In this document: positions 7,106-52,450 of the stretch, piece by piece
How positions within the stretch are numbered: position 1 is the first letter of the stretch
How the letters are laid out: each line of letters opens with the position of its first letter
Assembly: GCA_003427395.1 (NCBI GenBank)
Contig: BFEA01000024.1
Span: 337,989 to 401,988, forward strand
Length of the DNA stretch: 64,000 nt
Source of the DNA: Chara braunii
Lineage: Eukaryota > Plantae > Charophyceae
Reading direction: 5' to 3'
Program-made: the position numbers and the translations under genes
Notes under the pieces: model-generated
What the model saw: the letters and a program-made list of their open reading frames with translations, nothing else
Databases searched by the model: none
Told to the model about the DNA's origin: nothing

Positions 7106-7123
7106 GCTTCTCAGAGGACTGTT

Positions 7124-23574: not shown

Positions 23575-23636
23575 TAGGAGTAGCATCTGCACCTACTCAG
23601 ATAAAGGGTAAGGACGAACAAACAGGTAAGGCGCCT

Positions 23637-26571: not shown

Positions 26572-28446
26572 TGTCGGAGGGCGCGGTGTTCCGGCCCTCC
26601 GCTGCTTACAGGCATTCGCCCACTCATGGTTGTTTACCAGACGTCCGCTCACTTACCGCTGCAGGCCTGATATTAGTCAATAGGGTCACGTGGAATTTAC
26701 AGGCTAGGCCTTGTTACTAGGCCTTCCGATGGGACCACGTGGGCTCGACACCCTACCTTACTGCGAGCCGTCCCGCAGCCGAAAAGACTAATTGGGTCTT
26801 GTCTGGATAGAAGAAAGGGTAGCACGGTTTACTCAGCCGCGCGTCAGGCCCCAATGGTCGTGGTCCGAGCTAGATGCAGGGTGTGATAGTGATAGTCGGC
26901 GTTATCTTCTTAACCACAAACCAGGTTCTTGTAGCTGGGTTATAGGGTAGGTGAGGTGGCAACAATCACTATCAGTAAAAGAAAAAATACAGAGAAAAGT
27001 GAAGGAAAAGGGGAAAAGAAAAAAGGGTCAAGCACGGAGTTTCAAATTTGTGCCTAGATCTAGATAGTTGCTGCCCGATGGCTTTGGTGATGTCTCGATG
27101 CAAGAGAGATTCAAAGCGTCATCCCCCTCTCCTTATAATTATTATTATTACTATTGTTATCATTATTATTATTATTATTATTATTGACTTCCTTTATCTA
27201 ATTTTCCCTTCGGTCATTTCGCTGGAGGCTAACGGTCCAGTTTTGAACTCCGATTGCAGCCTGGCGGTCTAGACTAGCCGTCCCTTCGTGTATTGCCTGT
27301 GGCTGAACTGTCCGACTGAGCGCCGTGCAATAGGACCCCAAAAGAGGGGCAACCCACGGCCGCTTCAGTAGGAGGCTTATCACCCCCAGAGGAAGGTCAT
27401 AAGCCCCCTCCTTGCCATCGGATACAGGTACCCAATAGAAGTAGGCCGACGACACATTTTGAAGAGAGAAGGGCGTCCGTCGGTATCTCGTTATGGGACC
27501 ACCGTGTCTAGTCTGCAGGTCACTTTCACATCTGAGGAAAAATGTTTAGTGGCTGACAGCGGAAGCTGGCGTTATGACCGTAGGTGTCACGCCACTTATT
27601 TTTCCCCCTTTTATTTTCCTTTGTTTCCTTTTAATTTATTCTATTAAATTTTGAAAATTCAAATTATTAAAGATGCAGAATCTTGGAAGCTATTTCAATC
27701 CCCTTTTTAGAGTACGGGGATCGAGTAGGCAGTGATCCTATAGAAGAGAGGGAGATGTGTCATTGGCAACTGGGGCAAAGGCATCCCCGTTGCACTAAGT
27801 ACGGGTGAGTCGAAGAGGGAGGACCGGGCAGCAAAGTCAGCGCGTGGGTTCGTTCGTGTGTGTGTGTGCGCTGGGTGTTCAGTTCTGGCTATTCTGGAGC
27901 TTGGTAGCCTAGCACCGTAAACAGTCCATTCGAAAAAGGGCTCAGCTATGGCGTGTAGCAACGGTCTTTTCGGCTATAGGCCAGGGCACCTGAGGTTTTA
28001 CTGGAGCTGGGAACCTATGTGAGAAGAGGAGGCTACAGTGGATGTCTGCTTGAGTAACAGTAAAAGTGACGGGGCGGTTAAGCAAAAAATCAATATCTAC
28101 GGAGGGAAAAACAGGAGATGAGGGAGGGTGGAAAAGTGCAGGGGGTAGTCATTGAGGCTCGCAACAGAGCAGAGAGATGGTGCAGGATGGATGGAGTGAC
28201 CGCGACCCTGAAGGTTACGGTTACTTATCACGAGAAAGAGACTTCCACTAGCACGACTGAGAGAGAGCAGCAAGAGCTGGACTGAGATTCAAAGGTTGAG
28301 TCCGAGGCCAGCGATGCGCAGACTCGGTCGTGGCATGGGCTGGAGCAGTGGAGGCGAGAACACCCGCCAGCCGAGTTGGTAGAGGACAACCCAGAGGCCA
28401 GCTCGCCCTAGCAGAGAGACTGAGGCGGTGTGACGGTTACGGGTCG

Positions 28447-28502
<56 letters not shown>

Positions 28503-31500
28503 GCGCGATACGTGGCAGGGCTGCGTGTGTGCAAATGCAAAGAATGCTCAGAGTGTTGACGTCCATGTTGACTCTCACATGCAGGAAGCTAAAGAGGGGA
28601 CACATGTGCGGACCAGAGCCGAGACCAAGCCCCCTAGGTGGTTGTGAGTAAGCCACTGGGAGTGGGCAGTTTTCAAGGAGCTTCACACATGATTGGGAGA
28701 GAAGAGCCATGCGTGACGCGTGAACACTATGGTGGCGGGTCTCAGAGAGCGCTCAAGGACAGTAGACGTCGTTGTTGACGACAACATTCCCCTTGTGTAG
28801 AGCGCGTCCGCAACTCCTGGACAGAGTTAGTAACATTGCGTCCGCCAAGCTGGGACAATCACAAGAAAACAAACGGGGGTTGAGCCTGCGTGACTGTGTG
28901 GAAGAGTGTCCGTGCCCAAGCCCAAGCGAGAGCGCTACGCCTGAGTACGTGGTTGGGGTCACCCTCCATTTGGGTGACCCATCTCGCCAGTCGTTGCAGG
29001 TCGCAGCACTATCAGTTTCGTCGGATTATCGTGATAAGCCTGGGGTGGGCTTTTTTCACCATGTGCTTGGTCTCTAGGCTAGAGAGAATGTGCGCACTTG
29101 CCTTTTTGAACTCGTGCCTAACGATGTTGCTTTCTTGAATGAGCGAACACGAATGGAATTGGGGTTCTCATACTGTGCACTTCAGGCGTAATCAGTGAGA
29201 CAGCGGGCCGACTATCACGAGAAAGAGAGGACTAGGTGGACACGATTGTGAGAAAGTCACGCTCACAGCAAGCTATGAGGAAGAGGCAAAGAGGTTGCGA
29301 AATAGACTGACCAATCATCACTTACCTGGGATTGGTTTCCGCTGCACTCCCGGGGAATAAGTTGTTTTCCTCTTTTTCGTCCTTTCGGAAGCTGGAAAGT
29401 GTGTATGCCTTTCTGGGTGCGTGCCTATGGTGGTAATTCTCTCGAAATAAACGAGACAAGAAATGGACTTAAACACACGCGTCTTGTGAACTGAGTGGGA
29501 TCAGCGTGACAACGGGCCAACTGTCGAGTACGTGAGGCATCGAGTAATTAAGGGCTATCCCACGACGCCAACATGTTCGAGGGGAGTGGGCAGTCATAGC
29601 TTAGAAATGAGAGTGGGTGAGGTTTCCCTTGCAGCTGGTGCCATGTATGACGTAGCGAGAAGGTCTCCAGAGCACAGGCAAAACCCGAAGAAGAGAGCAT
29701 GATGGCCTATCGAGGTCCAGAGCAAGGGAATATATCAGTTGACGTCATCCTATGGCATTGCTAACGCAGGTCAATCTTCCAGAAGCAGTGCGCCCTCCTC
29801 GTTAGTCTGAGTTTTTAGCGAGGTTTCCTTGAGAGAAGAGCATACATGATGTCGAGGATGCTATTATTAGCAGTAGATTCCAGCTAGCAGCCGCTGCGAC
29901 CCTCGTCCAGATATGTGAGGTATTCTCTCTGTGAGGCAGTGACTAGGCGGTATAGAGGTGATGGCGTATGAATGACGTGTGTACAGAGAGGAGATATGGG
30001 TGAGAATAGTGAGAGGGAAGGTTAAAATGAGCGACTTACTTAGGGGATAGAAATTGTGTCGCCTCTGATTTGTTTTATATACTGTCTTGAGCTGCGCGTG
30101 AAGGGTGTCATGGTTGGCTATAATGTAGAAATAAAGGGTATGTGGTGAACGCTCCACGGGAAGACACGGCGCTTATCAAACCTAGGTAGAGTTTTAATTG
30201 AGTTATTTTGGTACTTGAGTCGACAGTATGCGTGCAGTATGAGGTTGAGCGCATGGACAAGTTTTCTTAAATCACGTACGAAAGACGTGAGCTAAAAACG
30301 ATGACGCTATCAACGGTGTAAGTTACATAATATTTCTCCTTTTAATTGATCACGCTCTGTGTGATGACTCGGTCATGAATGGGTCGTGCATGAAAAGAAG
30401 TTGTTCTCGGCCAAGGTGAGTGGGGGAAAACAAGTAAGCGCAATTGATTGTTAACATTATTGGGTTTTTAGTAAACGACGTACTTTACCCTGGTCAGACT
30501 CTCACAAGCATCCCGAATCTGGCTACTAAGGAGAAGTCACATAGACTATTGCGACCGATTTCACAAGGGGATCTTGTACGAGTTGGGCTAATGAACATTG
30601 ACGACTCTGAGTAACTTACCTGTGACTGGACTGAGAAAAACTAGCTTTGTTGAATGAACTCACTCTTAGCCGAAATGGGGTAGGGCCTCGTGTTACAGCT
30701 GTGAGTTGTGGAAAGGTCGGGTCCGACATACTACTTGATCAGTATTATGGCAAGGGGTACTTACCGTCGGTTAAGTCTCCTATGTGAAATTCGAGAACGG
30801 GCCGCATGTGGTAGGCGAGTAACAGAAGAAGGGAAAAACACAGAGGAGTCGTAAGTGGGTTCTGCCAATGATTAGTCAATTGTAAAACGTTGGACTCTCG
30901 ACGAGGCCGAGTAGGGAGGAGGATTGTCACGGTCCTCTCTCTCGTTCGTTCATTCTCACGTGAAGGGCAAACGGAAAACGGTTACTTGGTGAGCCGTCAA
31001 GCGGCTCTAAGCATCAAATTTTGTGTTTCTCCAATCGATTGGATGAGTCAGAGGGGAAGAACCTTAAGAAAAGTGGCTTATATTCTTGCTAAATTATTGG
31101 TTGATGGTGATTAAATTAAAATCTTGTATACTGAATCAGGTTTAACGAGTTTGTGGGTCATGTTATAGCAAGTCTTATCCAATAGTGTTTGTACCATAGT
31201 TGAGTAAAAATAAAAATGAGCACTATATAACATTGTGCCTGAGGGTTGTGGTCTGATTTACATGTGAGTGGGGAAAGAACAAATATACAGAGTGTGTGCT
31301 TTGTTTTCACAAACATAGCTATGAGCTGTATAGCACGGGTTCCTCACGGGGAGGGGGTTGAACGGGTTAGGACAATACCTGAGGCCATTATTGTTCCCTG
31401 TATGTTGTGAATCGGTGTTCGGGCTGCTCTAAACGGGTAACCTCCCTTGAGGTACTCAACTCGCGTGCCAAGCGTGTGAACCAGCAACTTGAAATTATAT

Positions 31501-31837
31501 TCAGCAGTCGCCCTGGTAAGGCTAAATGGTATTGTCTCGGTGGTCTCGGTAACCCATCCCAGTAAAGCCTAGCTATCTGACTTTTGTACCCTCCTTGAAC
31601 GACGACTATAGATTTTCACTCAACCACGGACTTGTATCAGTACTCGAACTATGCTCAATAAAAGTCTACGGACCAAGGTCGACTGGGAAGATAACAGTCC
31701 AGCAGCGATCAGATAGGGCTCTCAGAGCGGGCTCCTTGACCGATCTCCATATCTGTCTCTAAACTTGAGCACACTCCCGCCAAAACCTTCCGCGGGCTGC
31801 ATCATCGATGACTTAAACCTTGGGGAGTGGAAGGAAT

Positions 31838-32067
31838 CATGAAGAAAGGTGAAACCTTAGTGACGAAATGTGAGGTTATTATGGGAAGATAAGGCTGTCC
31901 TGAGTATGAAGCACTTGAAAATAGACTTGAGGGAGAATGTAATTCGGAGGGTTAAGGAGGAAAATATCATCGAATATGTGTTTGAGTTTCGAGATCGGAA
32001 TGGCAAGCTACATAGCACCGACTCCTTCTCAGAAACGATAGAGCAGGCCCGAGCAAGGCTTAAGTGA
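31838..32067 (+). pseudogene. LTR-encoded ~80-aa ORF, frameshifted copy of 50776-51021
   Basis: Same C-terminus (VIRRVKEENIIEY.F.FRDRN..HSTDSFSETIEQA..RLK); a short deletion breaks the frame in this copy. Confidence 0.45.
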
Positions 32068-32340
32068 ACGTGAAAGGTTCTGAGGCTTCTTTATCAGCAG
32101 TCCTCAAAAGTCAAACAACACACAAGGATCAACAATGGTTATTATCTCAGCCTCACGTTATCAAGCGATTAATAGTCATTGATTTGTTATTTCAACAACG
32201 TTTAGCCACTCAAGTTACCAGGAAATCTTGACCAAGATCATTCAGCGCTCAATCATTGCAGGTTGACATTGAGACCAATATCAATTAGTATGTGCATTCA
32301 CCAAAATAATTAAGACCCTCTTAAGTGTTCACCTCTACCC

Positions 32341-33001
32341 ATGAGCGCAATTCAATCTTTCCTTTTAGTGAATCAGTCTTAGTCAGCCTCAACATCATAG
32401 CCCTCAAAGATGCAGTCCAGTATCGATACGTGAGTGCAGTTGGCTTCAAACAAGGAAACCTATCTATTTTTGTTGTTTTCATCTCACTAGTTATGCAGCA
32501 GGCACTATCCTCGACCCGAGACTCTACGTGAAGAAAGGCAAGGAGACTCATGAAAATTTTGAGTTAGTTTGGATCTCAGCGGCTAGATACCTTGAGGAGA
32601 GAGAGAGGGAGCTAGACGAAAGTGGAGTGAAGCTGATTCGCAGCTTCGGAGCAAAGCTCTATACAGTTAACCCCAAGCCTCCAGTTCCTTTTACTCTCAC
32701 TGATGGTTTTTATTGGGGTGAACTGGTGTATCTAGCCAAGAGGTACATTTCGCCTGCAATAATTGATTATGAGGCAGTGACTGAGCCATCAGAGTTCCAA
32801 CATCTCAGACGAGGGATCTTCTCTCGACCATATCTCCCTACACCATGGGAGAAGTTTTGCGCTATGGTTGACTTTCGTGTCATGAAACTTGGTTGGAAAT
32901 GTTCAGAGCTCGCAGGCTTCAAGAAGCTCTACATCGAGAGACCACAACCTCAGGCAGTACAGAGACTTGGCTCAAAGTATAGGAAACATACAACAAGATG
33001 A
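32341..33001 (+). pseudogene. LTR-encoded accessory ORF 'L' (~218 aa ancestral), 5' copy
   Basis: ATG at 32341; two frameshifts (1-nt loss ~32360, 5-nt TTCAT insertion ~32478); the 157-aa distal part is open in both LTRs. Confidence 0.65.
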
Positions 33002-33495
33002 GAGATTGAGTGTATTATCCAGAGGGATGAGTGAGAATCCCTGACTAATGCTGACCATGCTCTCATCATGAGTACTCTCTAAGATTATTATGAGTTCTCA
33101 TTCTTCCCTCACTCATGTTGTCATTGCTCAAGTTAGTCAGTTTTGCTTCTTTTGCATTGACTCTGCCAGATGATTATGCTTTTGATGATTTTGTCACAGT
33201 TCTCAAAATTAGAAAATTGCCAAGCCTAATGCATGCATGACATACCAAAATTTCATGATTATTATTTGCATAATCTTTGTTGTTCCGAATCAAAATTAAA
33301 AATTCCTAAGACCGGGGACCGGCGAAGACCGCAATTTAAGGGTCTCGCTCGAAGCCGAACGCACACAACAGGAAGCGATTTGCCTTAATTAATTAATTTA
33401 TTTAATTCAGAACAACATCCAAAATCCTGCGTGACAGCCTGTTGGCTTTTTGGTCGCTCGAAGAGGCCTGACTAGAAAAAAAAGTGCGACAAAAA

Positions 33496-33513
33496 TTGAG
33501 TCGTTGTCGGGGA
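33496..33513 (+). promoter_or_regulatory. Degenerate PBS, tRNA-Asp type (element 3)
   Basis: TTGAGTCGTTGTCGGGGA matches TGGCGCCGTTGCCGGGGA at 14/18 positions, 4 nt after the LTR end. Confidence 0.65.
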
Positions 33514-33834
33514 CATGAAAATCTTTCGTGTTAGGAACGAGCCTGGGTCAGTGACAACTTTGAGTTTTTATTAGGACATGACTGTTGATAATGTCTGAAT
33601 TTTCAGATTGACTTTGACATCATGAGTGGGTCATTATTTTACTGGAAGTTTTCAGTCGCTAACGGGGTCTTATCTCCTCATGTGTGAGGTACCACACTGG
33701 ACCGGAGAAGGAGACTGACGTTATTCATTGGAGAGGAATCAGGCTTGATCACAGGTATGCCTTATGAGCCCTTGATGTCCTTGAAGATCTGAGTAAGAAG
33801 AGAACGAGTCAGAGGGTAAGAGATTCAATCAAGA

Positions 33835-34110
33835 ATGCTAACTGCTGATTCACTGAAAGAACTCTCAAAATTTACTATTAAACGGGTATTTCCCTATCAG
33901 TATGAGCATTGTTGGGTTTACCACTCTGGCAGTTTGACCATCCGTGTAGTACTGGCTCACTTTTTGGAGCGAGATATCCATGATATTCGTCCCTAAGCCA
34001 AGAAGGGAGGCTGCAACGACGGTGAACCCTTTAACTGGTTATAAAAAATTGTTGTTCAGTCTATCTACGACGAAAGACAAATCTAATTAAACGAAAGAAG
34101 AAAGTGGAAT
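33835..34110 (+). pseudogene. Accessory paralog 'C' of the LTR ORF L family
   Basis: MLTADSLKELSKFTIKRVFPYQYEHCWVYHSGSLTIRVVLAHFLERDIHDIRP*AKKG aligns without gaps to SLNIIALKDAVQYRYVSAVGFKQGNLSIFVVLTSYAAGTILDPRLYVKKG. Confidence 0.6.
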
Positions 34111-34236
34111 GGGGGTTAATGCCTGTAACCTATGAGACAATTCCAACTCCTTTTATTCCTGAGAGTTATTGTAAAGGAAGTAATTGGTTGCCAATAGTTA
34201 ACATGGTACTGAGTTGGAAGAAATGAGAAGGCGGTC

Positions 34237-34527
34237 ATGAGAACAAGAAAAACGTCAGCAGAGGAAATCAGACATAGAAGACTGAAATTTGATAGAGGTT
34301 CAGGTCCGAGCAAGGAAAAGGTCGAGTGTCTCATCAGATCACTGAATGTTTTAAGTGAGAGAGAAGTGTTCCCATACAAAATTGTCAAATATGAGATGGT
34401 CGAGAGTGGATGGGAGCAAGAACGATTCTATGTCATGACATTCTACTTTACAGATCTAGACACATATTATGTAAGAATTTATGTTCCTAAACAAAGGAGT
34501 GTTGATGCTGTGTATGGGAGATGCTGA
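34237..34527 (+). CDS. Accessory paralog 'A' (96 aa), unknown function
   Basis: Open ORF; SLN..S.REVFPYKIV..E...G.....FYVMT.Y......VRIYVPK motif shared with L, B, C and D. Confidence 0.6.
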   Translation: MRTRKTSAEEIRHRRLKFDRGSGPSKEKVECLIRSLNVLSEREVFPYKIVKYEMVESGWEQERFYVMTFYFTDLDTYYVRIYVPKQRSVDAVYGRC

Positions 34528-34717
34528 AGATTTGCCTAAGAAGTTGTACTGAAAGAGAAAGAGAGACTCGAGAGAGAAAATAAGTGTTTCATTGGATCTA
34601 CTCAGCTTGCATTCTTTGAGAAAATAAGTGTCCTCCTTTACCTGATGTTTTGTCAAGAAACAATTGGTCTGCTGTGATTGAGTTTGCACTTAAAGTGAGA
34701 AGAGACCAAAGACACAA

Positions 34718-34945
34718 ATGAGACGATCATACCTACCTTCAAAAGTGAAACCCTGGATTAGGTTGGGAAATGGATATAGGAAGCTGAGTAAGGAAGATTC
34801 TGATAAACTGCCTAATTCTCTTAATTCTATAACAAGGAGAGCGGTGATCTCCTACCAAATCGTGAGGTATGTATGTTCTTACCTGTTATTTTATTGACCT
34901 TGATGAGTTTGATATTGGGAGCTACGTGCCACGACATAGGTTTGA
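34718..34945 (+). pseudogene. Accessory paralog 'B' (internal deletion and frameshift)
   Basis: LSKEDSDKLPNSLNSITRRAVISYQIVRY, then in a shifted frame YVLTCYFIDLDEFDIGSYVPR; closely parallels paralog A. Confidence 0.65.
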
Positions 34946-35235
34946 AGAGTGTAGAAGCGGTCAATATTGGCAACGAGCATCAGATGTTGTGCATGATGAA
35001 AAAAAAAGGCTTGGATGAGTAGGGGATAACTTCTCTTAGAGTACTTACGTCAGGCCTTTTACTAGGATACAATCTCCACTTGTTGAAGGACTTATGTTTT
35101 CAAGGAATAAGTGGTCAGTTATGATAGATTTTGTGTGAAAGGTGAAGAGGGTTCAAGGAGAATACTCCCGGCAGCAAGGATAACTGTTGTGATATATTTT
35201 GTATAAAAGATGAAGAGGGTTCAAGGAGAATACTC

Positions 35236-35951
35236 TTGGCAGCAAGGATATATGCTGTGAGAGGTAGACTTTATGAAGTAATTGGGTCTAATAATCCCTT
35301 TGTAATCTTGAGATGCGAGACTTGTGTAAGAGGGCGAATAATATTTCACATTCCAGTAGTCAAGTTCTTGAACACAGGCAGCTTGGACGTAAGGGTTTAC
35401 ACTTCGGTATGCCTAGAAAAGGAAGTTGGTTATTTTGAATGTCGGTTAGGAGTTTATATCAGTCTTATAAGGACAAAAAAGTGGCTGGAAAAATTAGAGA
35501 GGAAAGTAACTTGGGGAGAAGGAATAAGACAATTTGAGAAACTCCCTAGTTTTTTTTAAACTACTGATGACTTTGACGACAGGAGAGACTAGTCACCTCT
35601 TCTAAAAACCATTGTCATTGTAGGTAACGTAAGGAACAATGACTTCATAGTGATGATAAAGTCCCTACTCTTAAATACTTTTGAATACCAGTTCGAGATC
35701 CATGAAAAATTACAGAGGAAAGTAACTTGGGGAGAAGGAATAAGACAATTTGAAAAACTCCCTAGTTTTTTTTAACTACTGATGGCTTTGGCGACAGGAG
35801 AGACTGGTCACCTCTTCTGGAAACCATTGTCATAGTAGGTAACGTAAGGAAGAGTGACTTCATAGTGATGATAAAGTCCCTACTCTTAAATATTTTTGAA
35901 CACCAGTTCGAGATCCCTGACTATATTCATCCTGAGATCTACCTCCCCTAA
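35236..35951 (+). pseudogene. Accessory paralog 'D' with an internal ~215-bp tandem duplication
   Basis: PFVILRCETCVRG...KFLNTGSLDVRVY matches the family core. After the poly-T, KLPSFF-TTDGF...W matches L's KPPVPFTLTDGFYW. 35488-35701 is duplicated at ~35704-35916. Confidence 0.55.
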
Positions 35952-36552
35952 CATTGTTCATGATGGTCGATAATGCCTGGAACGGTTGATCAGCTAACAT
36001 TCGGGGTTGTATTGGAAGGTAGAGTTGTTAAGACAGAAGAGACTCTTCGGATCTCAGACACAGGTCTCTCTGCTTTGGATGAACTTGCGTTTCTGTAACC
36101 TTTCTTTGATCAGATGACAGACTGCGCTCTAAGAGTCATCACTGACCACACTGAGATCAACTATTTACTGAAGGTAATGAGAGTGAGAATTATTGAGAGA
36201 ATATCATATCACTATTCTAGAGAACGAGTCTCTCTTGCTAGAAGAATCAACAGCGGTTCGTAAGCTATGCAAATTGACTATGAGATTGTAGATCTGATAC
36301 GATACTTTATGATCAGGGTACTGTGAAAAGGTATAACAAAAGATTGAGTAGGGATGATGAAAGAAAACTGATTGAAGGTTATATTGGAAGACTGCGAAGT
36401 ATTGCATTACCTTTGATCACCACCCAGTTTACTATTGCCTACATTCTCTATATACAAAACTCTCAAGGGGTAGAGCAAACAAGAGAAGGGAGAAACGAGT
36501 CTGTATCCCTTGCAAGAAGAGTAAGGGAAAAATAAGAAAGAGGAGTACAAAA

Positions 36553-37632
36553 GTGACAGGAAGAGAGATAAGAGATTATCAGGGGAAGTTTATGGTTAAA
36601 ATGGCAGGACGAGGGAGACCTAGCTCTTCTGCAGGGACTAACGACGAGACCCTGATTGGTACCATACGAGAACTGGTCGAGAGAGTTAACACGATAAAAG
36701 GAGGGTCAGATATTGCAAGGACAAAGAGGCCAGATGAGAGGACTCCATGCTTAAGAGGTCCTCAAGTAAATGATTTCTTGGATGAGTATGAATTGTTCGG
36801 GCTCGGCTATGGTTGGACAGACAAACAACGACTCAAGCACCTTTTGTCTTATTGTGACATTGACTCGAGGTTGGCTGTTCAAGAGTTGATGGAAGAGGCT
36901 ACAACATGTGAAAAAGTCAAAGAAAGAATGAAGAGGGAACTTGAGAAAGACTCTGTCTCAACTACTACCAAGGACCTACTCAACATCAGAAGAGCTAAGT
37001 ATGACACCTTTAATGTCTTCCTTCAAACTTTTATCAGAACAACTAGGAGAATCCCATATTTGGATGAGGCTCAAAGATGCCATATTTTTTTGACTAATTT
37101 TATAGATAATGAGAGACAAACTGTTCTCAATCAAGCTCGACACTACCCTCTCAGATGTGATGAAATGGTTGAAATAGTCAGAACTCTGCCTACGGTCTCA
37201 CACAAGAAGTGGTTACTGAATCAGATCAGTACGCTGACTAAAGACTGGGAGACCGAGAACGGTATGAGCAGAGGGAACAATTTTAGTGTTGAAAATCTTA
37301 TTCAACGAGTTATAACCAATTACATGCCTGCTAACCATGTCGATGATGAAAAAAGGAAGAAGAAGGCTGAAAGCGAAGATGAAGATGATGATGATGATGA
37401 TGATGACTATCGTAAAAGAGGACATTCCTCCAGGTCAAGAAAGAATAAAGGAAATGGTGAAAAAAAGAACAGAGAGAAAAGAAAGTATGATGAACGTCCA
37501 ATGAAGAGTTATGTCTGTTATTATTGTGGTGAGGGAGGTCATACTTCCACCTACTGTAAACCATTGGAGGAGGATGTGAAGAGTGAGGTGGCAAACAAGG
37601 ATGCAATGAGTCATGTTTGTGACAGTTCATGA
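36553..37632 (+). pseudogene. gag: gag of element 3 (the TGA at 37630 is probably premature)
   Basis: FLDEYE...GWTDKQRL gag-like core, acidic/basic tract, CYYCGEGGHTSTYC knuckle. Confidence 0.8.
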
Positions 37633-37836
37633 AACAAACTGGATCTTAGACACCCCGAAGGTATGAGACTTTTTGCCATTAAACATGAGGAAAAAATGAA
37701 GAAAAAAAAGAAGAGAAAAGTCAATGTAAAATGTTTATTTTTTCATCGGTGAATTGCCTGAAGGGCTTGTGCAAAAATTGATGACTCTCTTTCATTGATT
37801 GAATTGCCTCTATAGTCTCTAACTTTACTGAAAGAC

Positions 37837-40800
37837 ATGTCTGACGATGTTTTTTCAGGTGGGCTATTGTTGAGAGGGAGTTCTGTTTCTCGGACTTCTT
37901 CTAAGCTAGTAGCATTTTCACCTAGCGAGCCCGCCTGTTCAACCAACATGATGTATTTCGAGGGTGATGTACCACCGAAACTTATTATGGAACCCAACGA
38001 GGTGATTGGAGAAGTGAGGAATCTTCAACGCTTTACGCCACAAATGATAGAGAAAAAAAAGAGAAAACAAGTTGAGGAGACTCTAATTAACATTCTTGAT
38101 GATCAAGAACCAGACCCTCAATTTAAGAAGAGTGAGCAAGGGAAGAAGATAAAATTTATCCTCAATAGTGAGTTGGAAGATGAAACTGTAACTACAGATG
38201 TAATTACAAAAATGTTAAAAGAAAGGGAAGTGACTTTGTCTTTCAAGGAGGCAATGACTTTAGCACCAAAGTTGAGAGAGGAACTCAAGAAGTTAATCGA
38301 TAAGAAAATGATGGAAGTTAATTATCTGGGATCAATCTTTCCCAGCCAAGTCAACATGACCTTACCAGGATGTAAAATGAGATTCGCAACCATGGGCTGC
38401 GGGTATTTAGCTATCTACATTAATCAAGTGAAAATCCGAGCCCTAGTGGATTCTGGGGCAGAAATGATACTTATCTCTCAGAGAGCTATGGAAGCCTGTG
38501 ACCTGACCATTGATAGACCCTAAAAGCAAATGTTAAGTAATATTGTTGACCAACTCTTTGTGGCAAGGTTTATCGATAATTTGTCCATCAGGGTTGGGAT
38601 GATGTTAGTTGAACTACTGGGATTTGTGGTATCAGATCTAGACCATGATTGTATCTTGGACACTCCATTCTGACATAGGATGAAAACTGTCCAGTTCTTC
38701 AGTCATGAGGGGTCATCCTGGATTGGCTTGCAAGATCCAGAGACTGCACAGGAACAAACTTGTATGGTTTGTACTTCTCATCATCATAAGTATAAAATAT
38801 CAACTAACTCAATTAGAAGAGAAAAAATTGTCGAGAAGATAAGGAAGGAAAAGGGAAAAGACAAACAGGAAGTCAATGAGGAAGTTTCAGTTGATATCAA
38901 TCAGATCTCAAAGATGATGAAAACCCTTGGCAAACTCAAAGATGAAGATGGGAAGATTGAAGCATTTAAGAAGGTTGTTGAAAATGCTAATGGTGAAAAA
39001 ATGAAATTAAAGTTTGTATCAACACTTCTTTTTTTAGGAAAATAGTCACTGAGTCAAAAAAAAAAAACGAGCCCAAGGGGTTGAAGAAGAACCCAGTAGC
39101 AGTTTTTATTGAGAAAGATTATTATGAGGCACTGGAAAAGGAAAGGAGAATTATTAAAGCATTAAGGGAGTCTGCGAAATTGGGGAATAGAGTCACCAGG
39201 GAAAGGTTTGACACGATGAAGATAGGTTCTGACCAGTTCATCTTGCCTAAAGAGAAATAATATATCTTCAAAGTGTGTCAAAACTTCTCTGGTGCATTCT
39301 CTTTTAATGATGAAGAAAGAGGGCGGTTGAATGTGGATATGATTGAGATGACAAAGATCTAGACAGTTGATCCAATTCCATGGAATGACAAACCAACCAA
39401 GTACGCCTTGAAAGAAGAGGCAGAAGTAGTAAAACATCTGGATAATAAAATTGTCTCTAATGTTGCTGGACCTGCGGATGGACTGTATGCTAACCACTAG
39501 TTTTGTTTATGAAAACCAGAGGGTGGACTGAAATTGATACATAATCTTCAAAAATTCAACTCAGTAACGATACGTGACGCGGGTAACCTTCCTAATGTTG
39601 ATCTCCTTTCTGAATTTTTTGCTGGTCGATGCATTTATTCTTTAATTGATTTGTATTTTGGCTATGATCAGCTTCCCATTGATCCCACTAGCCGACCAAT
39701 GACTGTCATGCACACGCCGAGGGGCCTCATTCAAATGTATGTGGTACCTCAGGGTTGGACCGATGGTGTGACAGTGGTTCAAAGGGACATGATTCAAGTC
39801 ATGCAGGACATCTCACCCGAGATAACAAGTCCTTACGTTGATGATAATCATGTGAAAGGACCCCTAGTAAGAGACGAGACTTTGGTCGCTGATGAAGTCA
39901 GGAAGTTTGTTTGGGAACATGTTGAGGAAGTGAAGATGGTCCTAGAGAGACTTCATAAATATAACCTGACCGTCAGTGGACCAAAGTCCCTTCTCTTTCA
40001 AGCAGAGGTAACCGTCTTGGTTTAGATGTTTCTCCAAGGGTAGGAGCCTTGACCCCAAGACGATAGACAAAATTTTGAACTGGTGTCTAACGAGTGACAA
40101 ATGTTAGAAACGTTTTGGGTGTCTGTGGGTTCTGGATGATTTTTATTCCTCATTTTGCTACCCTTGCAGAACCTCTAAGAGAAATGGTGAGACAAAGGGC
40201 TGACTTATCTTGGACTGAGAAAAGACGGAATGTTGCAGAAACTTTACAAGAAAAATAAAAAGATGGGGGAGTAGTGTTGAGAGTCTTTCTATGATGATGA
40301 AGAGGGAAGACCCTTCATCATCGAGCCAGATGGGGGACCAGTGACTCTTGGTGGTGTACTTATACAGAAAGACAGGAATGAAAATGAGAGACCTCTGAGA
40401 TTTGAGAGTAAAACTCTTAACTCTACAGAAAGATGCTACACCCAGTTTAAGAAAGAGCTACTGACAATCATCCATTGTCTCAGGTGCTTTAGGCACTATG
40501 TACTTGGAAGGATATTCATCCTTAAGACTGGTGCATATGCTGTGATTGGTGCTATTAAAAAACATCAACAGTGGATCCAACACTAAGCAAGTGGATTGCT
40601 TTCATTTAAACTTTTGATTTTAAATTGAAAAAAAATCCTACTGAGAAAAATCGGGCTTTATTTGAATGGAGAAAAGAAAAAGATGAGAATGTTGATGGGT
40701 CAATCGAAGAATCTGCCTATGTTGATAACTTCTTAAATGAGGAAGACGACGAAGACTATAAGGCTTCGAGCTCTTACAAGTGGAACTTATGGCCTGAAGA

Positions 40801-42300
40801 GAGAGACAGTTGGGGAGAAACCCCTGATGCTTATGTCTATGAATTAATTCTTGAAAAATACGAACAACAACAACAAAATGATTGGTAATGCTAGAGTCAA
40901 TGCAGCGGTTGTGGCTGCTCATGAACTGAGAGAGAGTTCTGGTTCAAAGAATGAGGAAGGTGGTGAGAAGAAAAACGAAGAGATATCATTTATCTTTGAA
41001 GAATATGATGAAATTTATCAAGAGATTGGGAAGAAGATGGAAAGAGAACGATAAAAGGAGTATTACTGCAAAAACTTAAAGGAAAAGTTTAGATTAAAGA
41101 GAGGTCACCTCTTTGTGGATGGCAAATGAGACTTACCTCCACTAAGAATTGTATGTGGGAAAGAAAGACAACTAGAAATAATTGCGGCTCTACACGAGGG
41201 GATTGTTGGTGGTCATAAAACTGCTGAAGCAACCTACTCTAAGACAATTAAACTTTACTCATGGCCTGACATGAGAGACATGTTTTACAGATTCTGTAAG
41301 TCATGTGTATTATGTCAGAAGAGGTCGACAACAAGGATGATTGAGCCTTTGTTTCTTACTATTCTGATGGAGTCAGGCGATCGAGTTCACCTGGATCTCA
41401 TCACTATGCCCCTTGGCAAGGGTGGTGTGAGGTACATACTGAACATGAGGGATAATTTTTCTGGATATGTTGAGGCAAAAACTTTGAAGAGGAAGACACC
41501 CGAGCAAGTGGCTGACTGGATAGAGGAGGCCTATCTCAGGTATCCCTTCATCAGAGAGTTTGTCTCAGACAGAGGATCTGAATTTAGAAATGAGATTGTA
41601 AGACGAACCACTCTCAAACTTGGTGTTAGAATTCGGTATGACTACTTATCATCCTCAAACAAATGCACATGTCGAAAGCGGTCACAAGACTCTGAAAGAT
41701 TCATTTGCTAAATTGTGTGAAGGGAACCTCAATGATTGGCCAAAAGTATTGAGTGTTGCAGCTTATGCTGACAAGATCATTGTCAAGGGAACCACTGCTT
41801 ATGCTTCATTCACTCTTTCATATAGTCGGTATGCTACTCTGCCTATTGAAAGTATAATCAAAACATGGTCAAGTCAAGAGAGTGACAAAGAGTATTCTAT
41901 TTCAGAGTTTCTTCAGATCAGAATGAGACAGATATCAAAGGTTGATCAAGCAGTTATGGATGCTGCAAAGAGAATGACAACCAACAGATTATCAGATCAA
42001 GAGAGATGGAACAAGAAGAAATATATAAGAAAGAGAAACTGAAAGTTGGTGACGTTGTCCTCTTATTCGATAATTCCCTTGAGACGCGGTGGACTAAACG
42101 ATTGGAGCCCAGATAGCTCGGTCCCTAAAGAATTACAGGTGAAAAAGAAGACAAAGTCTATGAAATATCGAAGATGGATGGCTCAAGAGTTCATGATATG
42201 GTATCAGGGTCAAAACTTCGTAAGTTTATCTTCAGAGACTCTGACTTGGTCCCTACAATGGTCACAAAGAAAGGAAAGAAGAACCAGTCATCTAGTAAGA
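37837..42300 (+). pseudogene. pol: pol of element 3 (PR, RT, RH, INT with GP-type tail; no chromodomain seen)
   Basis: ALVDSGAEMILIS; IDLYFGYDQL...VPQGWTDG...SPYVDD; LGGVLIQ...FESKTL...KKELL; H..GGH..CVLC, VHLDL, SDRGSEF, YHPQTNAHVE. Confidence 0.9.
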
Positions 42301-42388
42301 GAGTTGTTTCAGAGGACTGAGAAATGTATAGTGAGATGGGAAGGTAAAGCAAAGACAAGAACTTCAACAGATTTTGATTATTCTTGCA

Positions 42389-42724
42389 CTGCGTAGCACG
42401 GCGAACGTGTTCGCGCCCCTTCATGTTCGCTCGTTCGCGCGAACAGCTCGCGAACATGTTCGGCCGAATATTTTTTTTTTTCGTTATTTTTTTTTTTCTT
42501 TTTTTTTTCGGTTTGTTGGATTTTAACTCATGATTGGCTACGAATTTGAACATGACTCCAAGGTAAAGTTGCTTGTATTGTTATTTTACATAACATATAT
42601 TTTTTTCAGATTTTTCTGAGATTTTTTTTTTTTTTTTTTTTTTTAATAATTTTTATGTTCGCGTTCGGAGGGTTTTTGGCGCTTGTTCGCGTTTGCCTCC
42701 GAACGCGAACACGGTGCTACGTAG
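42389..42724. mobile_element. hAT-type MITE (336 bp) nested in element 3
   Basis: TIR CTGCGTAGCAC/GTGCTACGTAG (1 mismatch); perfect 8-bp TSD TTCTTGCA at 42381-42388 and 42725-42732; GCGAAC/GTTCGC subterminal repeats. Confidence 0.9.
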
Positions 42725-42748
42725 TTCTTGCATTGTCAGTTCAGTAAA

Positions 42749-43962
42749 TCAATTTTCAGTATGTCTAATTTTGTCACAAAGGACTTGAGAGAGACTTTTC
42801 AGATGATCTGCATTCGTTTTTGCATCTAAGCTGATTTTATTATTTTTTATAAGCAATGAAATCAATGAGATCAAAGTGTCATGAAGTGCACTTGCAGTGA
42901 TATTAAGTTCAGAGAACTCGTAGTTGTGGTACATCAAAAGAGTAATCAGTTTTGATCTCGTGAAGAAGAGAGAATTTAACGAGCATAAAAGAAGTCCAGC
43001 TCTACCTGACTAAAGAGTTGTCAGTGGAGGGACTTCGTTTTCTGACTAAGTTGTCTGTCCAAGAGAGTTATTAAGAAGATGGGCATAAAGAAGTTCAACT
43101 TTGCTTGACCAGAGAGTTGTCAGCATGAGGAGTTCGTGTTTCTTGACTAAGTTGCCTATCTTTGTGCCAGATGCGGGAAGGGACCTCTCTAGGGCCAGTA
43201 TCTCTATGCTCGCTTGAGACTGACGGGAGGTCTCTTGGGGGTACTCTCGGATGAGGGAGGGGACCTCTCTGGGATCAACACTCTGCATCTCTGGAGGCTG
43301 AAGTGAGGTCTCAAGGAAGTGCATTGTCGGCTGTTGTTTGTTGTTGTTTAATGTCTTTTGAGACTGAAGGGACGTCTCTTGAGAAATGTTTGTTCTGTTA
43401 TCTGGGGCATGGACTGTTTGACTGTGGGCATGAGATGTATGTTGGCTGTCTCTGCCTGGGATTTCTTCTCTAACCTAAAGATGCATTGATTGTCGGGGTC
43501 AACCAGAGCCTTACCGTAGTAGCTTGCAATCTGGTGGGGTCAGCAGGTCCCCGACGCGAGTGTCGACTGAGGCTAAGACTCCGGGAGTCTGGCCTGTGAG
43601 GTCAAAAGGGGTAAGTTGGAACCCTACCATAGTTAGAGGTTGCAATCCAGTGAGGTTCGCCAGAGCCTGGAACGGTGGTTAGACCAAGTCCCACGTTAAA
43701 AAATTTACGCAGGGCAACCACCGCCCTTGGCCAAAAACTGGTGGGTGAGCCGGTCCCCGACCTCAGTGGTCAAATCCGGGTACGAGACAGTTTGAGTCTG
43801 GGTGTCCTGGCGAAAGTGCCAAAGGGTCACCATACTCGAGTAGTGGGTATAGTGGTCCTTACCTGGAGGCAGGTTAAAGGGGCCGTCAAGACAAATAGTC
43901 TAATTGGTCCTGGCCTGAGGCGGGCCGAATGAGGTATATCAGACTGACGGGAGGTCTGTCAT
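42749..43962 (-). pseudogene. Decayed antisense ORF(s) between pol and the 3' LTR of element 3
   Basis: Protein-like minus-strand frames (MTDLPSV*YTSFGPPQARTN*TICLDGPFNLPPGKDHY...; 43046-43324; 42749-42937) with stops at plausible Trp positions. Confidence 0.4.
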
Positions 43963-44174
43963 TCCTGGCCAGTGGTGGGCCAAAACCAAGGCAATAAATA
44001 ACTCTTGGGTGTGAAGAACTGTTTATGTTTACTTACTATTTTATTATGGGTTCCTATATTTATTTATTTCTATTTAATTACTGATTGGTGGCTGCTTGTC
44101 AAGGAGTCTGTATGTTGGGGCTGAGGGACTTGTTGTTTTGCAGGATTATGCAGACACGTCAAGAGCTTCAAGGC

Positions 44175-44350
44175 CAGAGAAAAGAAAAGGGGTTTGGTAT
44201 CCCCTTTTATTTACCTAAGAAGTGAGGATACACCTCACTCAGAGCAGAGGAAAGGAACGGGGTTTGGTATCCCCTGAATTGCTTAAGAAGTTGAGAAGAC
44301 ATCTCACTCAGGCCAGAGCAGAAAAGGGGTTTGGTATACTTTATCCCCTG
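44175..44350 (+). repeat. Three ~68-bp tandem units with a purine run plus GGGGTTTGGTAT(CCCC) hairpin
   Basis: Copies at 44189, 44259 and 44326; the same 12-mer sits at 45339-45350 next to the 3' LTR. Confidence 0.8.
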
Positions 44351-47300
44351 CATGATAGGTAGAATGAGTGCCCTCAAATGTTAATATTATTTGGACAATA
44401 TTCTGGGCGTCATTGCCAAGATAAGGAGCAAGGTAATTTTCTTTCTGAAAAGGTTCAGTAGCAAGACAAGTGAGCGGCAGATGGGAAATCCTTCTTACAT
44501 TTGTTTGGTGGCCAACAAGCGGTCTGACTCACAAGGAACCTGCATCCCCGGCCTCAGGATATTCAAACTCTCAAGCCAGAGACGCAATTGAATGGACTGA
44601 AAAGTCAAGACAAGAAAATGATTCAGAAATTTGAGAGAAAATCGCGCTTATACAGGATGTAGAAGACAACCATGAACTCAATCTGAAGTAAGGAAAGAAG
44701 AAAGAAGATGCAAAAAATAGTGCAGTCGCTGAGATGAGAAGAAGGGGAAACTGCACATGGGGTAGGAGATGGTGGAATTGGCACTAGGGCCCTACTCGCC
44801 GCAGGGGTAGTGGGGGCTCTGGGGGAAAACGGAGGAGAGGAGAGACTTGGGGCGCCATAGCGCGCCAAACTTCTTTTGGAAACACTCCATCTTAGTGGGC
44901 GATGGAGTTCTCTCGTGCCAACTAGTGAGTGAGTGGTGCGGGTATGGCCTTGTGTAGCCATATCCTTAACCCCCCTCCTCTTCCTCCTCTGAATTGTACT
45001 CGTGACTTGCACGAGGTGGCGGCTCTTCCCGAGCCTTCCCTGCTCTTCCACCTCTTCCTCTCCCCAGTCCCCGATGTGCTTCAGGCATGGTGTGAGGTGG
45101 GATCCAAATAGAAACACCACAAGGCAAAGAAACCTGCACTAGGAGATGGTTGTGCTGGATGCGTAGAAAGATAGCGCGATGGGGGAAAGAGGAGTGTGCT
45201 GCGAAAGGAAAGCGTTAATTCAAGGTTGCCTCGAGAACTTTGCTGCAAAACGATTGTGAAGAGTATGTGAAAGCATCACGAAACTCGCTATCTTATATTA
45301 ACCATCTACTTTGTTTGGCCCAGTGGGGACTCTGGGCGGGGGTTTGGTATTATGTCGGAGGGCGTGGTGTCTCGGCCCTCCGCTGCTTTCAGGCATTCGC
45401 CCACTCAGGGTTGTTTACCAGATTTCCACTCACTTACCGCTGCAGGCCTGATATTAGTCAACACGGTCGCGTGGAATTGACAGGCTAGGCCTTGTTACTA
45501 GGCCTTCCGATGGGACCGCATGGGCTCGACACCCTACCTTACTGCGAGTCGTCCCACAGCCAAAAAGACTAATTGGGTCTTGTCTGGATAGGAGAAAGGG
45601 TAGCACGGTTTACTCAACCGCGCGTCAGGCCCCAATGGTCGTGATCCAAGCTAGATGCAGGGTATGATAGTGATAGCCGGTGCTGTCTTCTCAACCGCAC
45701 GCCAGGTTCCTGTAGTTGGGTTATAGGGTAAGTGCGGTGGCAACAGTCACTATCAATAAAAGAGAAAATACAGAGAAAAGTAAAGGAAAAGAGGAAAAGA
45801 AAAAAGGGTCGAGCACGAAGCTTCAGATCCGTCCTAGATCTAGATCGTTGCTGCTCGATGGCTTTCGTGATATCTCGACGCAAGAGAGATTCAAAGCGTC
45901 CTCCCCCTCTCCTTATAATTATTATTATTACTATTATTATCATTATTATTATTATTATTATCGACTTCCTTTACCTAATTTCCCTTCTGTCATTTCGCTG
46001 GAGGCTAACGGTTCAGTTTTGAACTCCGATTGAAGCCTGGCGGTCTAGACTAGCCGTCCCTTCGTGTATCGCCTGTGGCTGAACTGTTCGGTTGAGCGCC
46101 GTGCAGTAGGACCCCAAAAGAGGGGCAACCCGCGACTGCTTCGGTAGGAGGCTTATAACCCCCAGAGGAAGGTCATAAGCCCCCTCCTTGCCATCGGACA
46201 CAAGTACCCAATAGAAGTAGGCCGGAGGCACGTTTTGAAGAGAGAAGGGCGTCCGTCGGTATCCCATTACCGTGTCTAGTCTGCAGGTCACTTTCACTTC
46301 TGAGGAAAAATGTTTAGTGGCTGAAAGCGGAAGCTGACGTTATGACCGTTGGTGTCACGCCACTTATTTTTCCCCCTTTTATTTTCCTTTGTTTCCTTTC
46401 CATTTATTCTATTAAATTCTAAAAATTCAAATTATTAAAGATGCAGAGTCTTTGAAGCTATTTGAATCCCCTTTTTAGAGCACGAGGATGGCGTAGGCAG
46501 TGATCGTATAGAAGAGAGGGAGATGTGTCACTGGCAACTGGGGCAAAGGCAGTCCCGTTGCACTGAGCACGGGTGAGTCGAAGAGGGAGGACCGGGCAGC
46601 AAAGTAAGCGCGTGGGTTCGTTCGTGTGTGTGTTTGCCCCGGGTGTTTAGTTCTGGCTATTCTGGAGCTTGGTAGCCTAGCACCGTATACAGTCCATTCG
46701 AAAAAAGGCTCAACTATGGCATGTAGCAACCGTCTTTTCGGCTATAGGTCAGGGCACCTGAGGTTTTACTGGAGTTGGGAGCGTATGCGAGAAGAGGAGG
46801 CTACAATGGATGCCTACTTGAGCTACAGTAAAAGTGACGCGGTGGCTAAGCTAAAAATTAATGTCTACAGAGGGAAAGAATAGGAGATGAGTGAGGATGG
46901 AAAAGTGCAGGGGGTAGTGACTTAGGCTCGCAACAGAGCCGAGCGAAGGTGCAGGAGGGATGCGACCGCGACCCTGAAGGTTACGGTTACTTATCACGAG
47001 AAAGAGACTTCCACTAGCACGACCGAGAGAGAGCAGCAAGAGCTGGACCGAGATTCAAAGGTTGAGTCCGAGGCCAGCGATGCGCAGACTCGGTCCTAGC
47101 ATGGGCTGGAGCAGTGGAGGAGAGAACACCCGCCAACCGAGTAGGTAGAGGACGACCCAGAGACCAGCTCGGCCCAGCAGAGAGACTGACGCAGTGAGAC
47201 GGTTACGGGTCGACGGAGAGAGAGAGAGAGAGAGGGCGAGAAGGGCGCGATACGTGGCAGGGCTGCGTGTGTGCAAGTGCAAAGAATGCTCAGGGTGCTG

Positions 47301-47551
47301 ACGTCAACGTTGACTCCCGCGCGCAGGAAGCTAAAGAGGGGACATGTGTGCGGACTAGAAAGGGGAACTTGAGGTGACGACGAGAACAAGCCCGCTACGT
47401 GGTTGTGAGTAAGCCACTGGGAGTGGGCAGTTTTCAAGGAGCTTCACACATGATTGGGAGAGAAGAGCCATGCGTGACGCGTGAACGCTATGGTGGCGGG
47501 TCTCGGAGAGAAGGGAGACCGAAAAATCTCGCTCAAGGATAGTAGACGTCG

Positions 47552-47950
47552 TTGTTGACGACAACATTCCCCTTGCGTACAGTGCGTCCACAACTCCTAG
47601 ACGGAGTTAGTAACACTGCGTCCGCCAAGTTGGGACAATCACAAGAAAACAAACGGGGGCTGAGGCTGCGGGACTGCGTGGAAGAGTGTTCGTGCTCGGG
47701 CCCAAGCGAGAGCGCTACGCCTGAGTACGTGGTTGGGGTCACCCTCCGTTTGAGTGACCCATCTCGCCAGTCTTTGCAGGTCGTAGCACGATCAGTTTCG
47801 TCAGATTATCGTGATAAGCCTGGGGTGGGGGTTTTTCGTCGTGTGCTTGTGTGCGCTTGCCTTTTTGAACTTGTGCCTAACGATGTTGCTTTCTTGAATG
47901 AGCAGACAGGGATGGAATTGGGGTTCTCGTACTGTGCACTTCAGGCGTAA
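47552..47950 (+). CDS. LTR-internal ORF (132 aa; homolog 28772-29077), function unknown
   Basis: Open in both LTR copies for ~100 codons; no recognisable domain; non-ATG start. Confidence 0.3.
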   Translation: MLTTTFPLRTVRPQLLDGVSNTASAKLGQSQENKRGLRLRDCVEECSCSGPSESATPEYVVGVTLRLSDPSRQSLQVVARSVSSDYRDKPGVGVFRRVLVCACLFELVPNDVAFLNEQTGMELGFSYCALQA

Positions 47951-50775: not shown

Positions 50776-51021
50776 ATGAAAAAAGGTGAAATCTTTGTGA
50801 CGAAATGTGAGGTTATCATGGAGAAGAATGAAAACTGGGAAGATGAGGTTGTCCTAAGTATGGAACACTTGAAAATGGTCTTGAGGGAGGATGTAATTCG
50901 GAGGGTTAAGGAGGAAAATATCATCGAATATATGTTTTACTTTCGAGATCGGAATGACAAGCAACATAGCACCGACTCCTTCTCAGAAACGATAGAGCAG
51001 GCCCAAGTAAGGCTTAAGTGA
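50776..51021 (+). CDS. LTR-encoded ~81-aa ORF, function unknown
   Basis: ATG-initiated open frame with globular-looking composition; homolog in the 5' LTR. Confidence 0.45.
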   Translation: MKKGEIFVTKCEVIMEKNENWEDEVVLSMEHLKMVLREDVIRRVKEENIIEYMFYFRDRNDKQHSTDSFSETIEQAQVRLK

Positions 51022-51295
51022 ACGCGAAAGGTTCCGAGGCCCCGTTATCAGCAGTCCTCAAAAGTCAAACAACACACAAGGATCAACAATTGACAATTAT
51101 ATCAGCCTCACGTTATCAAGCGATTAATGGTCATTGATATGTTATTTCAGCAGCGTTTAGCCACTCAGGTTACCAGGAAATCTCGACCAAGATCAGTCAG
51201 CGCTCAGTTATTGCAGGTTGACATTGAAACCAGTATCAATTAGTATGCGCATTCACCAAAAGAATTGAAACCCTCTTCAGTGTTCACATGTACCG

Positions 51296-51950: not shown

Positions 51951-52450
51951 GAGATTGAGTGTACTATCCAAAGGGATGAGTGAGGACCCTTGACTTGTGC
52001 TGGCCATGCTCTCATCATGTGTACTCACTGAGATTATTATGAGTTCTCATTTTTCCCTCACTCATCTTGTCATTGCTCGAGTCAGTCAGTCTTGCTTCTT
52101 TTGCATTGACTCTGGCAGATGATTATGTTTTTGATGATTTTGTCACAGTTCTCAAAATTAAAAAATTGGCAAAACTAATGCATGCATTACATACCAAATT
52201 TCATGATTATTATTTGCATAATCTTTGCTGTTCCGAATCAAAATAAAAGATTCCTAAGACCGGGGAGTCGCGGGGACCGGCAAAGACCAGAATTGAAGGG
52301 TCTCGCTCAAAGTCGGACGCAGACAACAGGAAGGTATTTGCCGTAATTAATTAATTTATTTATTACAGAACAGCATCCAAAATCCTGCATGATAGACTGT
52401 TGGCTTTTTGGTCGCCCAAAGAGGTCCGAGTAGAAAAAAAAAGTGCGACA

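Follow-up and report, generated by a model that had tools for sequence, protein, structure and literature searches.

An array of short paralogous ORFs upstream of gag in a giant, decayed Ty3/gypsy retrotransposon from Chara braunii

The element and its accessory ORFs

The stretch of Chara braunii DNA analysed here (64,000 nucleotides of contig BFEA01000024.1, assembly GCA_003427395.1, forward-strand positions 337,989 to 401,988; hereafter the window, numbered from its first letter) contains a decayed 25,879-bp (25.9-kb) Ty3/gypsy retrotransposon that is nested inside another one. Seven short open reading frames (ORFs) of this element lie upstream of gag. Comparison of their translations confirms that five of them, L, C, A, B and D, belong to one paralog family, of which D is the weakest member, and the other two, E and F, form a separate pair. 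The initial annotation placed the family upstream of gag and within the long terminal repeat (LTR), and the coordinates agree: C, A, B and D precede gag, and L is found in both LTRs, since it stops 490 bp short of the LTR end and hence occurs twice per element (Table 1). Every family member is broken in this copy, with 0–5 stops and 0–2 frame breaks.

The assignment to Ty3/gypsy is based on LTRs with TG…CA ends, the target duplication and the order of the pol domains detected with Pfam (protease, reverse transcriptase (RT), RNase H, integrase). The LTRs were seen as a pair of long direct repeats by self-comparison (92.5% identity; Kimura two-parameter (K2P) distance 0.08). The target duplication, ACGC, occupies positions 26568–26571 before the 5' LTR and 52451–52454 after the 3' LTR, and is taken to be 4 bp long because no other length keeps the interrupted host integrase frame open.

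Table 1. Features of the Chara element, in window coordinates
Feature	Coordinates	Strand	Description
5' LTR	26572..33491	+	6920 bp, TG…CA ends
ORF L	32341..33001	+	family domain and ~85-residue C-terminal extension; 2 frame breaks, 0 internal stops
Primer-binding-site-like stretch	33496..33513	+	4 nt after 5' LTR
ORF C	33757..34226	+	start 33757 or 33835; 1 frame break; 5 stops counted from 33757 (154 codons)
ORF A	34237..34721	+	1 frame break, 2 stops; stop overlaps start of B (ATGA)
ORF B	34718..35190	+	1 frame break, ~12 codons missing relative to A, 3 stops; end approximate
ORF D	35236..35951	+	most diverged member; start undefined; C-terminal part duplicated in this copy
ORF E	35973..36263	+	96 codons, 1 stop; paralog of F
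ORF F	36267..36535	+	~89 codons, 1 frame break; 56 nt before gag
gag (zinc knuckle) and pol, decayed	36592..42330	+	identified with Pfam
3' internal region	42330..45352	.	3 kb between integrase and 3' LTR
3' LTR	45353..52450	+	7098 bp, 92.5% identical to 5' LTR
ORF L, 3' LTR copy	51296..51950	+	1 frame break

Paralogy of the accessory ORFs

Each ORF was translated in the frames present in the window, breaks being marked by X, and 28 pairs were scored against 2000 shuffles and the window background. From the window alone, the close match between A and B that had been noted by eye is evident (p 3e-12; 0/1140 background segments), and B, at 39% identity, is the nearest paralog of A. Other pairs are weak and share the same register (L–C 0.001, L3–A 0.0015, C–A 0.015, C–D 0.012). 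In this scoring L–D and L–B do not reach significance. The family as a whole is carried by leave-one-group-out profiles, which included the natural relatives described below and were run against 2088 six-frame segments of the window, with segments overlapping a member dropped from the background count. Such held-out profiles recover L (E 4.5e-9), C (1.4e-14), A (1.1e-5), B (0.049) and D (3.9e-4), each ranked above all background segments, so that the five-member family proposed from the letters alone holds in this hidden Markov model (HMM) check. When 45 pairs are scored with the natural relatives included, B and A are linked directly (p~1e-16), and the relatives bridge the rest of the family (P0003–L, p 1e-11; P0001–L, 1e-6; P0001–P0003, 5e-9; P0001–D, 9e-4).

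In a tree, the L-type rows (99/99) and the A/B-type rows (84/88) group together, C-type rows are unresolved, and D is a long branch. Identity ranges from 12 to 39% among paralogs and from 54 to 65% among copies of the same type. The common domain of ~135 residues ends in a P-x-P…W helix, and the family alignment contains no invariant column. Weak profile matches at 45001–45540, 29522–29881 and 48241–48780 are not significant and are lost with better profiles, so no further members are seen in the window.

Some details of the first reading of these ORFs need to be amended. Its start codons at 32341, 51296, 33835, 34237 and 34718 are present, but D lacks an in-frame ATG at 35236; C has an additional in-frame ATG further upstream (Table 1). 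The core motif described there is shared, but it has no invariant column, and C, A and B continue past it across frame breaks to the C-terminal P-x-P…W that the members have in common (ends in Table 1). L and C are indeed related, but the alignment described as gap-free runs over a break in the reading frame of the copy in the 5' LTR. DNA-level similarity is, as claimed, not detectable in 20/21 DNA pairs, but A and B score 40 against a maximum of 35 in 200 shuffles. The C-terminal thirds of C, A and B had been missed altogether, as had the pair E and F.

E and F, located between D and gag, are by sequence comparison a second paralog pair outside the L/C/A/B/D family. They share 23/84 aligned residues (p 2e-5), and profiles of the larger family give them E values of 18–220, with 13–430 background segments scoring higher. 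Their codon-position signal is not significant (p 0.13). Neither has a Pfam match, and a separate search was limited to one frame.

Two recent tandem duplications occur within the array, one of 68 bp (89% identity, 35118–35250), which the 3' end of B enters, and one of 215–218 bp (93%, 35488–35920). The larger of these is skipped by contigs of other copies, and local duplication thus still occurs in the array.

Natural relatives of the family

When one read-through frame was searched against the whole protein library with HMMER, three matches were returned, namely P0001, P0003 and one Chara gene model; P0004 and P0005 were added by profile searches, in which 2/5954 and 1/7994 candidates were confirmed. 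P0001 (161 aa, A-type, 54% identical to A), P0003 (139 aa, C-type, 35% identical to C) and P0004 (164 aa, A-type) are unbroken proteins encoded on short ENA contigs of 556–737 bp, and they match the family ORFs in start, end and length. The other two, P0002 and P0005, are Chara braunii gene models (CBR_g46266 and CBR_g30998). An exon of P0002 is a relative of A (63%), and in an exon of P0005, 95/147 residues are identical to ORF L. Both models are chimeras in which a family member is spliced to retrotransposon pol fragments, and they are probably annotation artefacts.

Beyond these, library and profile searches found no unbroken relatives of B, D, E or F. For the C-terminal part of L, the yield was 0/27 candidates, no usable atlas match and 0/376 confirmed metagenome pattern matches. 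A-type relatives were not found in metagenome contigs (0/413) or viral contigs (0/5), nor C-type relatives in viral contigs (0/7), and an atlas search with P0001 gave scores that were all <0.9, with template modelling (TM) scores ≤0.50. Family members have no match in Pfam, PDB sequences or Rfam.

Selection, decay and transcription

The initial annotation regarded the paralogs as old and conserved at the protein level, and three kinds of evidence agree: the unbroken relatives, the density of stops and the pattern of identity across codon positions. Stops occupy 13/993 codons (1.3%) of the accessory frames, which were picked by homology, and 19/1606 (1.2%) of gag-pol, a count that includes short off-frame stretches (p 0.86). 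The antisense density, 142/2777 (5.1%), is far above that of the accessory frames (p 1e-8). Identity at codon positions 1/2/3 is 60/63/35% for A–B, 48/48/27% for L–C and 41/46/28% for A–D, and positions 1 and 2 together are more alike than position 3 at p<0.01 in 4/15 pairs (A–B, L5–C, L3–C and A–D). With stop density equal to that of gag-pol, this pattern makes it likely that the accessory ORFs were under purifying selection until this copy inserted. The two copies of L have since diverged with a ratio of nonsynonymous to synonymous differences (pN/pS) of 0.63, indistinguishable from 1 (p 0.24), as expected from decay after insertion.

The same data bear on whether the array consists of relics, that is, whether one useful or captured gene was copied by replication slippage and most of the resulting copies were nonfunctional passengers even while the family was active. 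None of the members is intact in this copy, C having 5 stops in 154 codons and D no clear start; the recent tandem duplications in the same stretch are apparently neutral; and B, D, E and F are the ORFs for which no unbroken relative was found. However, a passenger would not be expected to match gag-pol in stop density, or to keep first and second codon positions conserved while third positions are saturated. Unbroken A- and C-type relatives at 35–54% identity and a domain that still folds confidently in prediction point the same way, and this explanation is considered very unlikely.

Reads were mapped from 4 of the 24 listed runs. DNA contigs reach every one of the 30 bins into which the array was divided, most listed positions being covered by dozens of them, and the array is thus a trait of the whole element family. 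No RNA run was named in the run index as containing it, which speaks neither for nor against its transcription. RNA reads are scarce. One run has 1045 among 16.7 million records and the second 27 among 8.9 million, and they map to either strand; only 20/1045 are ≥95% alike to this copy. A search for spliced or subgenomic transcripts, which had been suggested as a check, was not rewarded: no RNA-supported splice joint is listed in the two RNA runs, and the few reads of mixed orientation come from other copies. The few reads stem either from weak transcription of other copies or from DNA carried over, and do not amount to a dedicated message. Most of the 40 read differences listed are letters found in this copy alone, and no conclusion on selection was drawn from them.

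Layout and translation

Of the 2779 bases that precede gag, 2705 (97% of 2.8 kb) fall within C, A, B, D, E or F. C and A are separated by 10 nt, D and E by 21 nt, E and F by 3 nt, and F and gag by 56 nt, and the A/B junction is a stop–start overlap, ATGA. Such tight head-to-tail packing suggests polycistronic translation. Because it resembles that of caulimovirus polycistronic RNAs and of termination–reinitiation junctions, we infer that the ORFs may be translated by termination and reinitiation; splicing or internal promoters are the alternatives. ATGs in the pre-gag stretch are not depleted (58 versus 62 expected), which speaks against leaky scanning.

This layout raises the possibility that the targets of the proteins are the RNA or capsid of the element itself, whether in export of the 19-kb genomic RNA, as with CERV of Cer1, as a reinitiation activator like caulimovirus TAV, or as part of an enlarged particle. 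With six or seven ORFs before it, gag needs special translation or splicing, and there are precedents in published accounts (cited here and below from the portions available): in caulimoviruses, whose ORFs are packed in this way, one product activates reinitiation (PMC5902531), and CERV is an example from a retrotransposon (PMC10309623). One factor would do for such a task, however, and five diverged copies are left unexplained; the proteins also lack a basic RNA-binding character, and no similarity to TAV or CERV appears in Pfam, PDB or viral fold searches. A role of this kind is therefore rather unlikely.

Predicted fold and biochemical character

Models were made with AlphaFold2 for the C-type protein (predicted local distance difference test (pLDDT) 80, predicted TM score (pTM) 0.73) and the A-type protein (pLDDT 74, pTM 0.67), using one 16-row alignment for both. 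Each consists of a helix, three strands, a long helix, one or more strands and a final helix. The unbroken relatives are near neutral, with net charges of −2 to +1, and a membrane helix is absent: the maximum 19-residue hydropathy is 0.63–0.88 in the unbroken relatives and 0.5–1.4 across L5, C, A, B, D and the relatives. The 3' LTR copy of L reaches 1.84, on a predicted strand. The transmembrane helix that would mark an env-like protein or an sORF2/FAST fusogen is thus missing from these proteins. Together with the lack of an invariant residue, the charge and the hydropathy favour a soluble interaction module over an enzyme or a fusogen.

A Foldseek search against PDB and viral models gave nothing at E≤0.001. 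In a wider structural search with the A model, gelsolin-fold chains occupy 20 of the top 21 rows (Z 4.0–5.6), 17 of them by title and the others being tropomodulin chimeras and Sec23 rows, which we take to be of gelsolin fold. With the C model they occupy 15 of the top 24 rows, behind an unknown streptococcal protein (5.5) and Crl (5.0). In a second structural look, the C-terminal half of gelsolin ranks first for both models, at Z 6.2 (84 residues aligned, rmsd 3.8) and Z 5.6, and the best gelsolin neighbour spans model residues ~22–117. Gelsolins are over-represented in PDB, which weighs on any such ranking, and the predicted gelsolin-like fold is best treated as a lead. Two other candidates were set aside. 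A double-stranded RNA-binding domain, which a helix, three strands and a helix in succession would suit, does not occur among the fold rows listed, and PD-(D/E)XK-like nucleases appear only weakly (Z≤4.1), with no invariant acidic residue in the family.

Fast divergence with the fold kept, at 12–39% identity between paralogs and 54–65% between copies of one type, would also suit counter-defence factors that block host silencing or restriction, their paralogs multiplied in an arms race as with VANC of VANDAL transposons. The family is abundant in reads, and accessory proteins of transposable elements have been reported, in part of one account, as anti-silencing factors with many predicted host contacts (PMC13547354). 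On the other hand, no VANC, double-stranded RNA-binding or chromatin domain is found among the fold and Pfam rows listed, and the near-neutral charge of the unbroken relatives is atypical of nucleic-acid binders. Counter-defence is unlikely on balance.

Possible role of the array

The reading preferred here is that the five tandem copies of the ~135-residue domain would be soluble, non-enzymatic adaptors that bind host proteins and, in doing so, move or protect the element's RNA or particle. The array ORFs would be translated one after another from the element RNA by stop-and-restart. The array itself may have arisen by local duplication during replication, as is suggested by the two recent tandem duplications in the same stretch, with L captured into the LTR, and each paralog would then have diverged toward a different partner or binding mode. 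Since gelsolin domains are the best structural neighbours, actin or the vesicle-coat machinery would be the leading candidate partner. In the initial annotation the array was likened to the accessory genes of complex viruses, a role that these proteins may have if they are made. As a whole (selection, sequential translation and binding of host proteins), the adaptor reading is given a probability of about 0.35.

Several results weigh against it. The codon-position signal is missing at p<0.01 from 11/15 paralog pairs, and the protein-guided alignment itself favours such a pattern where it appears. A dedicated message for the array was not seen in the two RNA runs, and no TGGGA motif lies shortly upstream of the A/B overlap. 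The A- and C-type models, being built from one 16-row alignment, are not independent. The gelsolin Z values fall short of 8, the level from which the tool's scores are to be trusted, at an rmsd of 3.8–4.8 Å and 5–14% identity, and for the C-type model the gelsolin value of 5.6 ties with TDP2 and Crl, the earlier search having also placed the unknown protein there. No gelsolin-named row occurs among the Foldseek rows listed, 0/16 members match a gelsolin Pfam model at E≤10, and there is no match to a PDB gelsolin sequence.

A more specific version of the adaptor reading, that a captured gelsolin-type domain was expanded into a polycistronic family of actin-binding proteins, is judged improbable. 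Chara giant cells depend on actin-based streaming. If this version were true, the element might ride or remodel the actin cables of the streaming cells, so that its particles reach nuclei or pass plasmodesmata, and it would be the first retrotransposon with an accessory gene array that manipulates the cytoskeleton.

Other features and genomic setting

The stretch that follows the 5' LTR (Table 1) may resemble a primer site of the tRNA-Asp type, the type by which Athila is recognised. For self-priming, no LTR-internal complement of at least 9 nt to the post-LTR bases was found. Hidden coding frames in the LTRs were not seen either, with codon-position bias between the LTRs in 0/15 windows. At the end of the LTR (33299–33455), the summed contig depth rises to 130,000, versus 1,000–8,000 in most bins of read set X1, which suggests many solo LTRs or an end common to related families.

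In the 3' internal region, the two longest antisense frames have no family match. One antisense frame of this region is poor in stops (32/1011) and contains a 142-codon ORF (43046–43474) in which short motifs recur, and which may be an extra ORF on the antisense strand like those of Retand or Grande.

The insertion site of the element is the integrase of another Ty3/gypsy element (22500–26571 and 52451–53100). A 674-bp direct repeat (19758–20431 and 53142–53815, 93.6% identity) may be the LTR pair of this host. Another decayed Ty3/gypsy gag-pol is located at 1442–7500, and a 175-bp repeat occurs at 1–175 and 7883–8056.

Comparison with known elements

Extra ORFs in plant LTR elements are common and fast-evolving, and their origin and function are described as an open question in the portions of the literature cited (PMC7264820, PMC6317226). 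Ogre ORF1, Retrosat2/RIRE3 ORF0, and the Tekay and TatII eORF-5'F are likewise sense ORFs of unknown function that precede gag in large elements with long LTRs (PMC6317226, PMC3485330, PMC6431247, as described in part). A gypsy element with a captured methyltransferase is known from a charophyte (PMC5890265, in part). The Chara element differs in scale and in number. At 25.9 kb, with LTRs of 6.9–7.1 kb, it exceeds a survey maximum of 24.1 kb (PMC6317226) and the 6.5-kb LTRs of Ogre, and, as far as these accounts go, the other plant gypsy elements carry 1–2 extra ORFs, whereas seven short ones are present here, in two paralog families and with one ORF in both LTRs.

An additional archaeal-type RNase H, the mark of Tat/Ogre, was not detected with Pfam in 7 decayed read-through frames over gag-pol, which did not span all three frames everywhere. 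Ogre and Athila are reported to make a 5-bp target duplication (PMC6317226, in part), as opposed to 4 bp here. For the chromodomain that marks chromoviruses, Pfam showed nothing after the integrase beyond a weak match to SH3_Tf2-1 (E 0.12) at its tail. Judged from sequence, then, the Tat/Ogre, Athila and chromovirus tests all fail, and the 4-bp NCGN target is shared with the much smaller Phygy, a non-chromovirus of Physcomitrella. Phygy, as partially described, likewise has an NCGN duplication (ACGC here, in one insertion) and no chromodomain or second RNase H. However, it is 7.7–10 kb long, has no extra ORFs and mostly uses a tRNA-Trp primer site, unlike the 25,879-bp Chara element with its seven extra ORFs.

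Analogous layouts are found further afield. In the part of the report consulted (bioRxiv 2025.03.14.642691), the sORF1 and sORF2 of Drosophila MDG1/412 elements are also short pre-gag ORFs, carried on unspliced LTR-to-LTR RNA and shown to be translated, but they are two unrelated ORFs, one of them a membrane fusogen, whereas the Chara element has five paralogs, predicted to be soluble, without a membrane helix. Caulimovirus pregenomic RNA similarly has consecutive ORFs with short gaps or fused stop and start codons (PMC5902531, in part). Its ORFs are not paralogous, however, whereas the Chara element integrates by way of LTRs and no TAV-like activator was identified in it.

At the level of the protein, the best structural neighbours are gelsolin/villin and the gelsolin-like domain of Sec23/24 (Z up to 6.2). 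Gelsolins work as 3–6 tandem domains. The Chara family differs in having an extra N-terminal helix and the C-terminal P-x-P…W helix, and in keeping its domains as separate ORFs.

The initial annotation held that known elements usually carry one extra ORF and that such an array is unfamiliar. The first part must be relaxed to 1–2, as far as the cited accounts go; for the second, neither an LTR element with a paralog array nor this protein family was found described in the literature searched, which covered sources other than the Chara genome paper, its supplements, Repbase and Dfam, any of which may mention it. The main survey of extra ORFs, in its available portion, counted only ORFs of ≥250 codons (PMC6317226), and arrays of genes of 90–220 codons would therefore be missed. 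Gypsy elements with extra ORFs are already known, and what appears to be new here is the paralog array and the undescribed protein family. The element indicates that tandem duplication can build up an accessory multigene family within a retrotransposon, with one member housed in the LTR and the genes arranged as tightly as in a polycistronic virus, and the unbroken natural proteins, together with a confident model, make their function directly testable.

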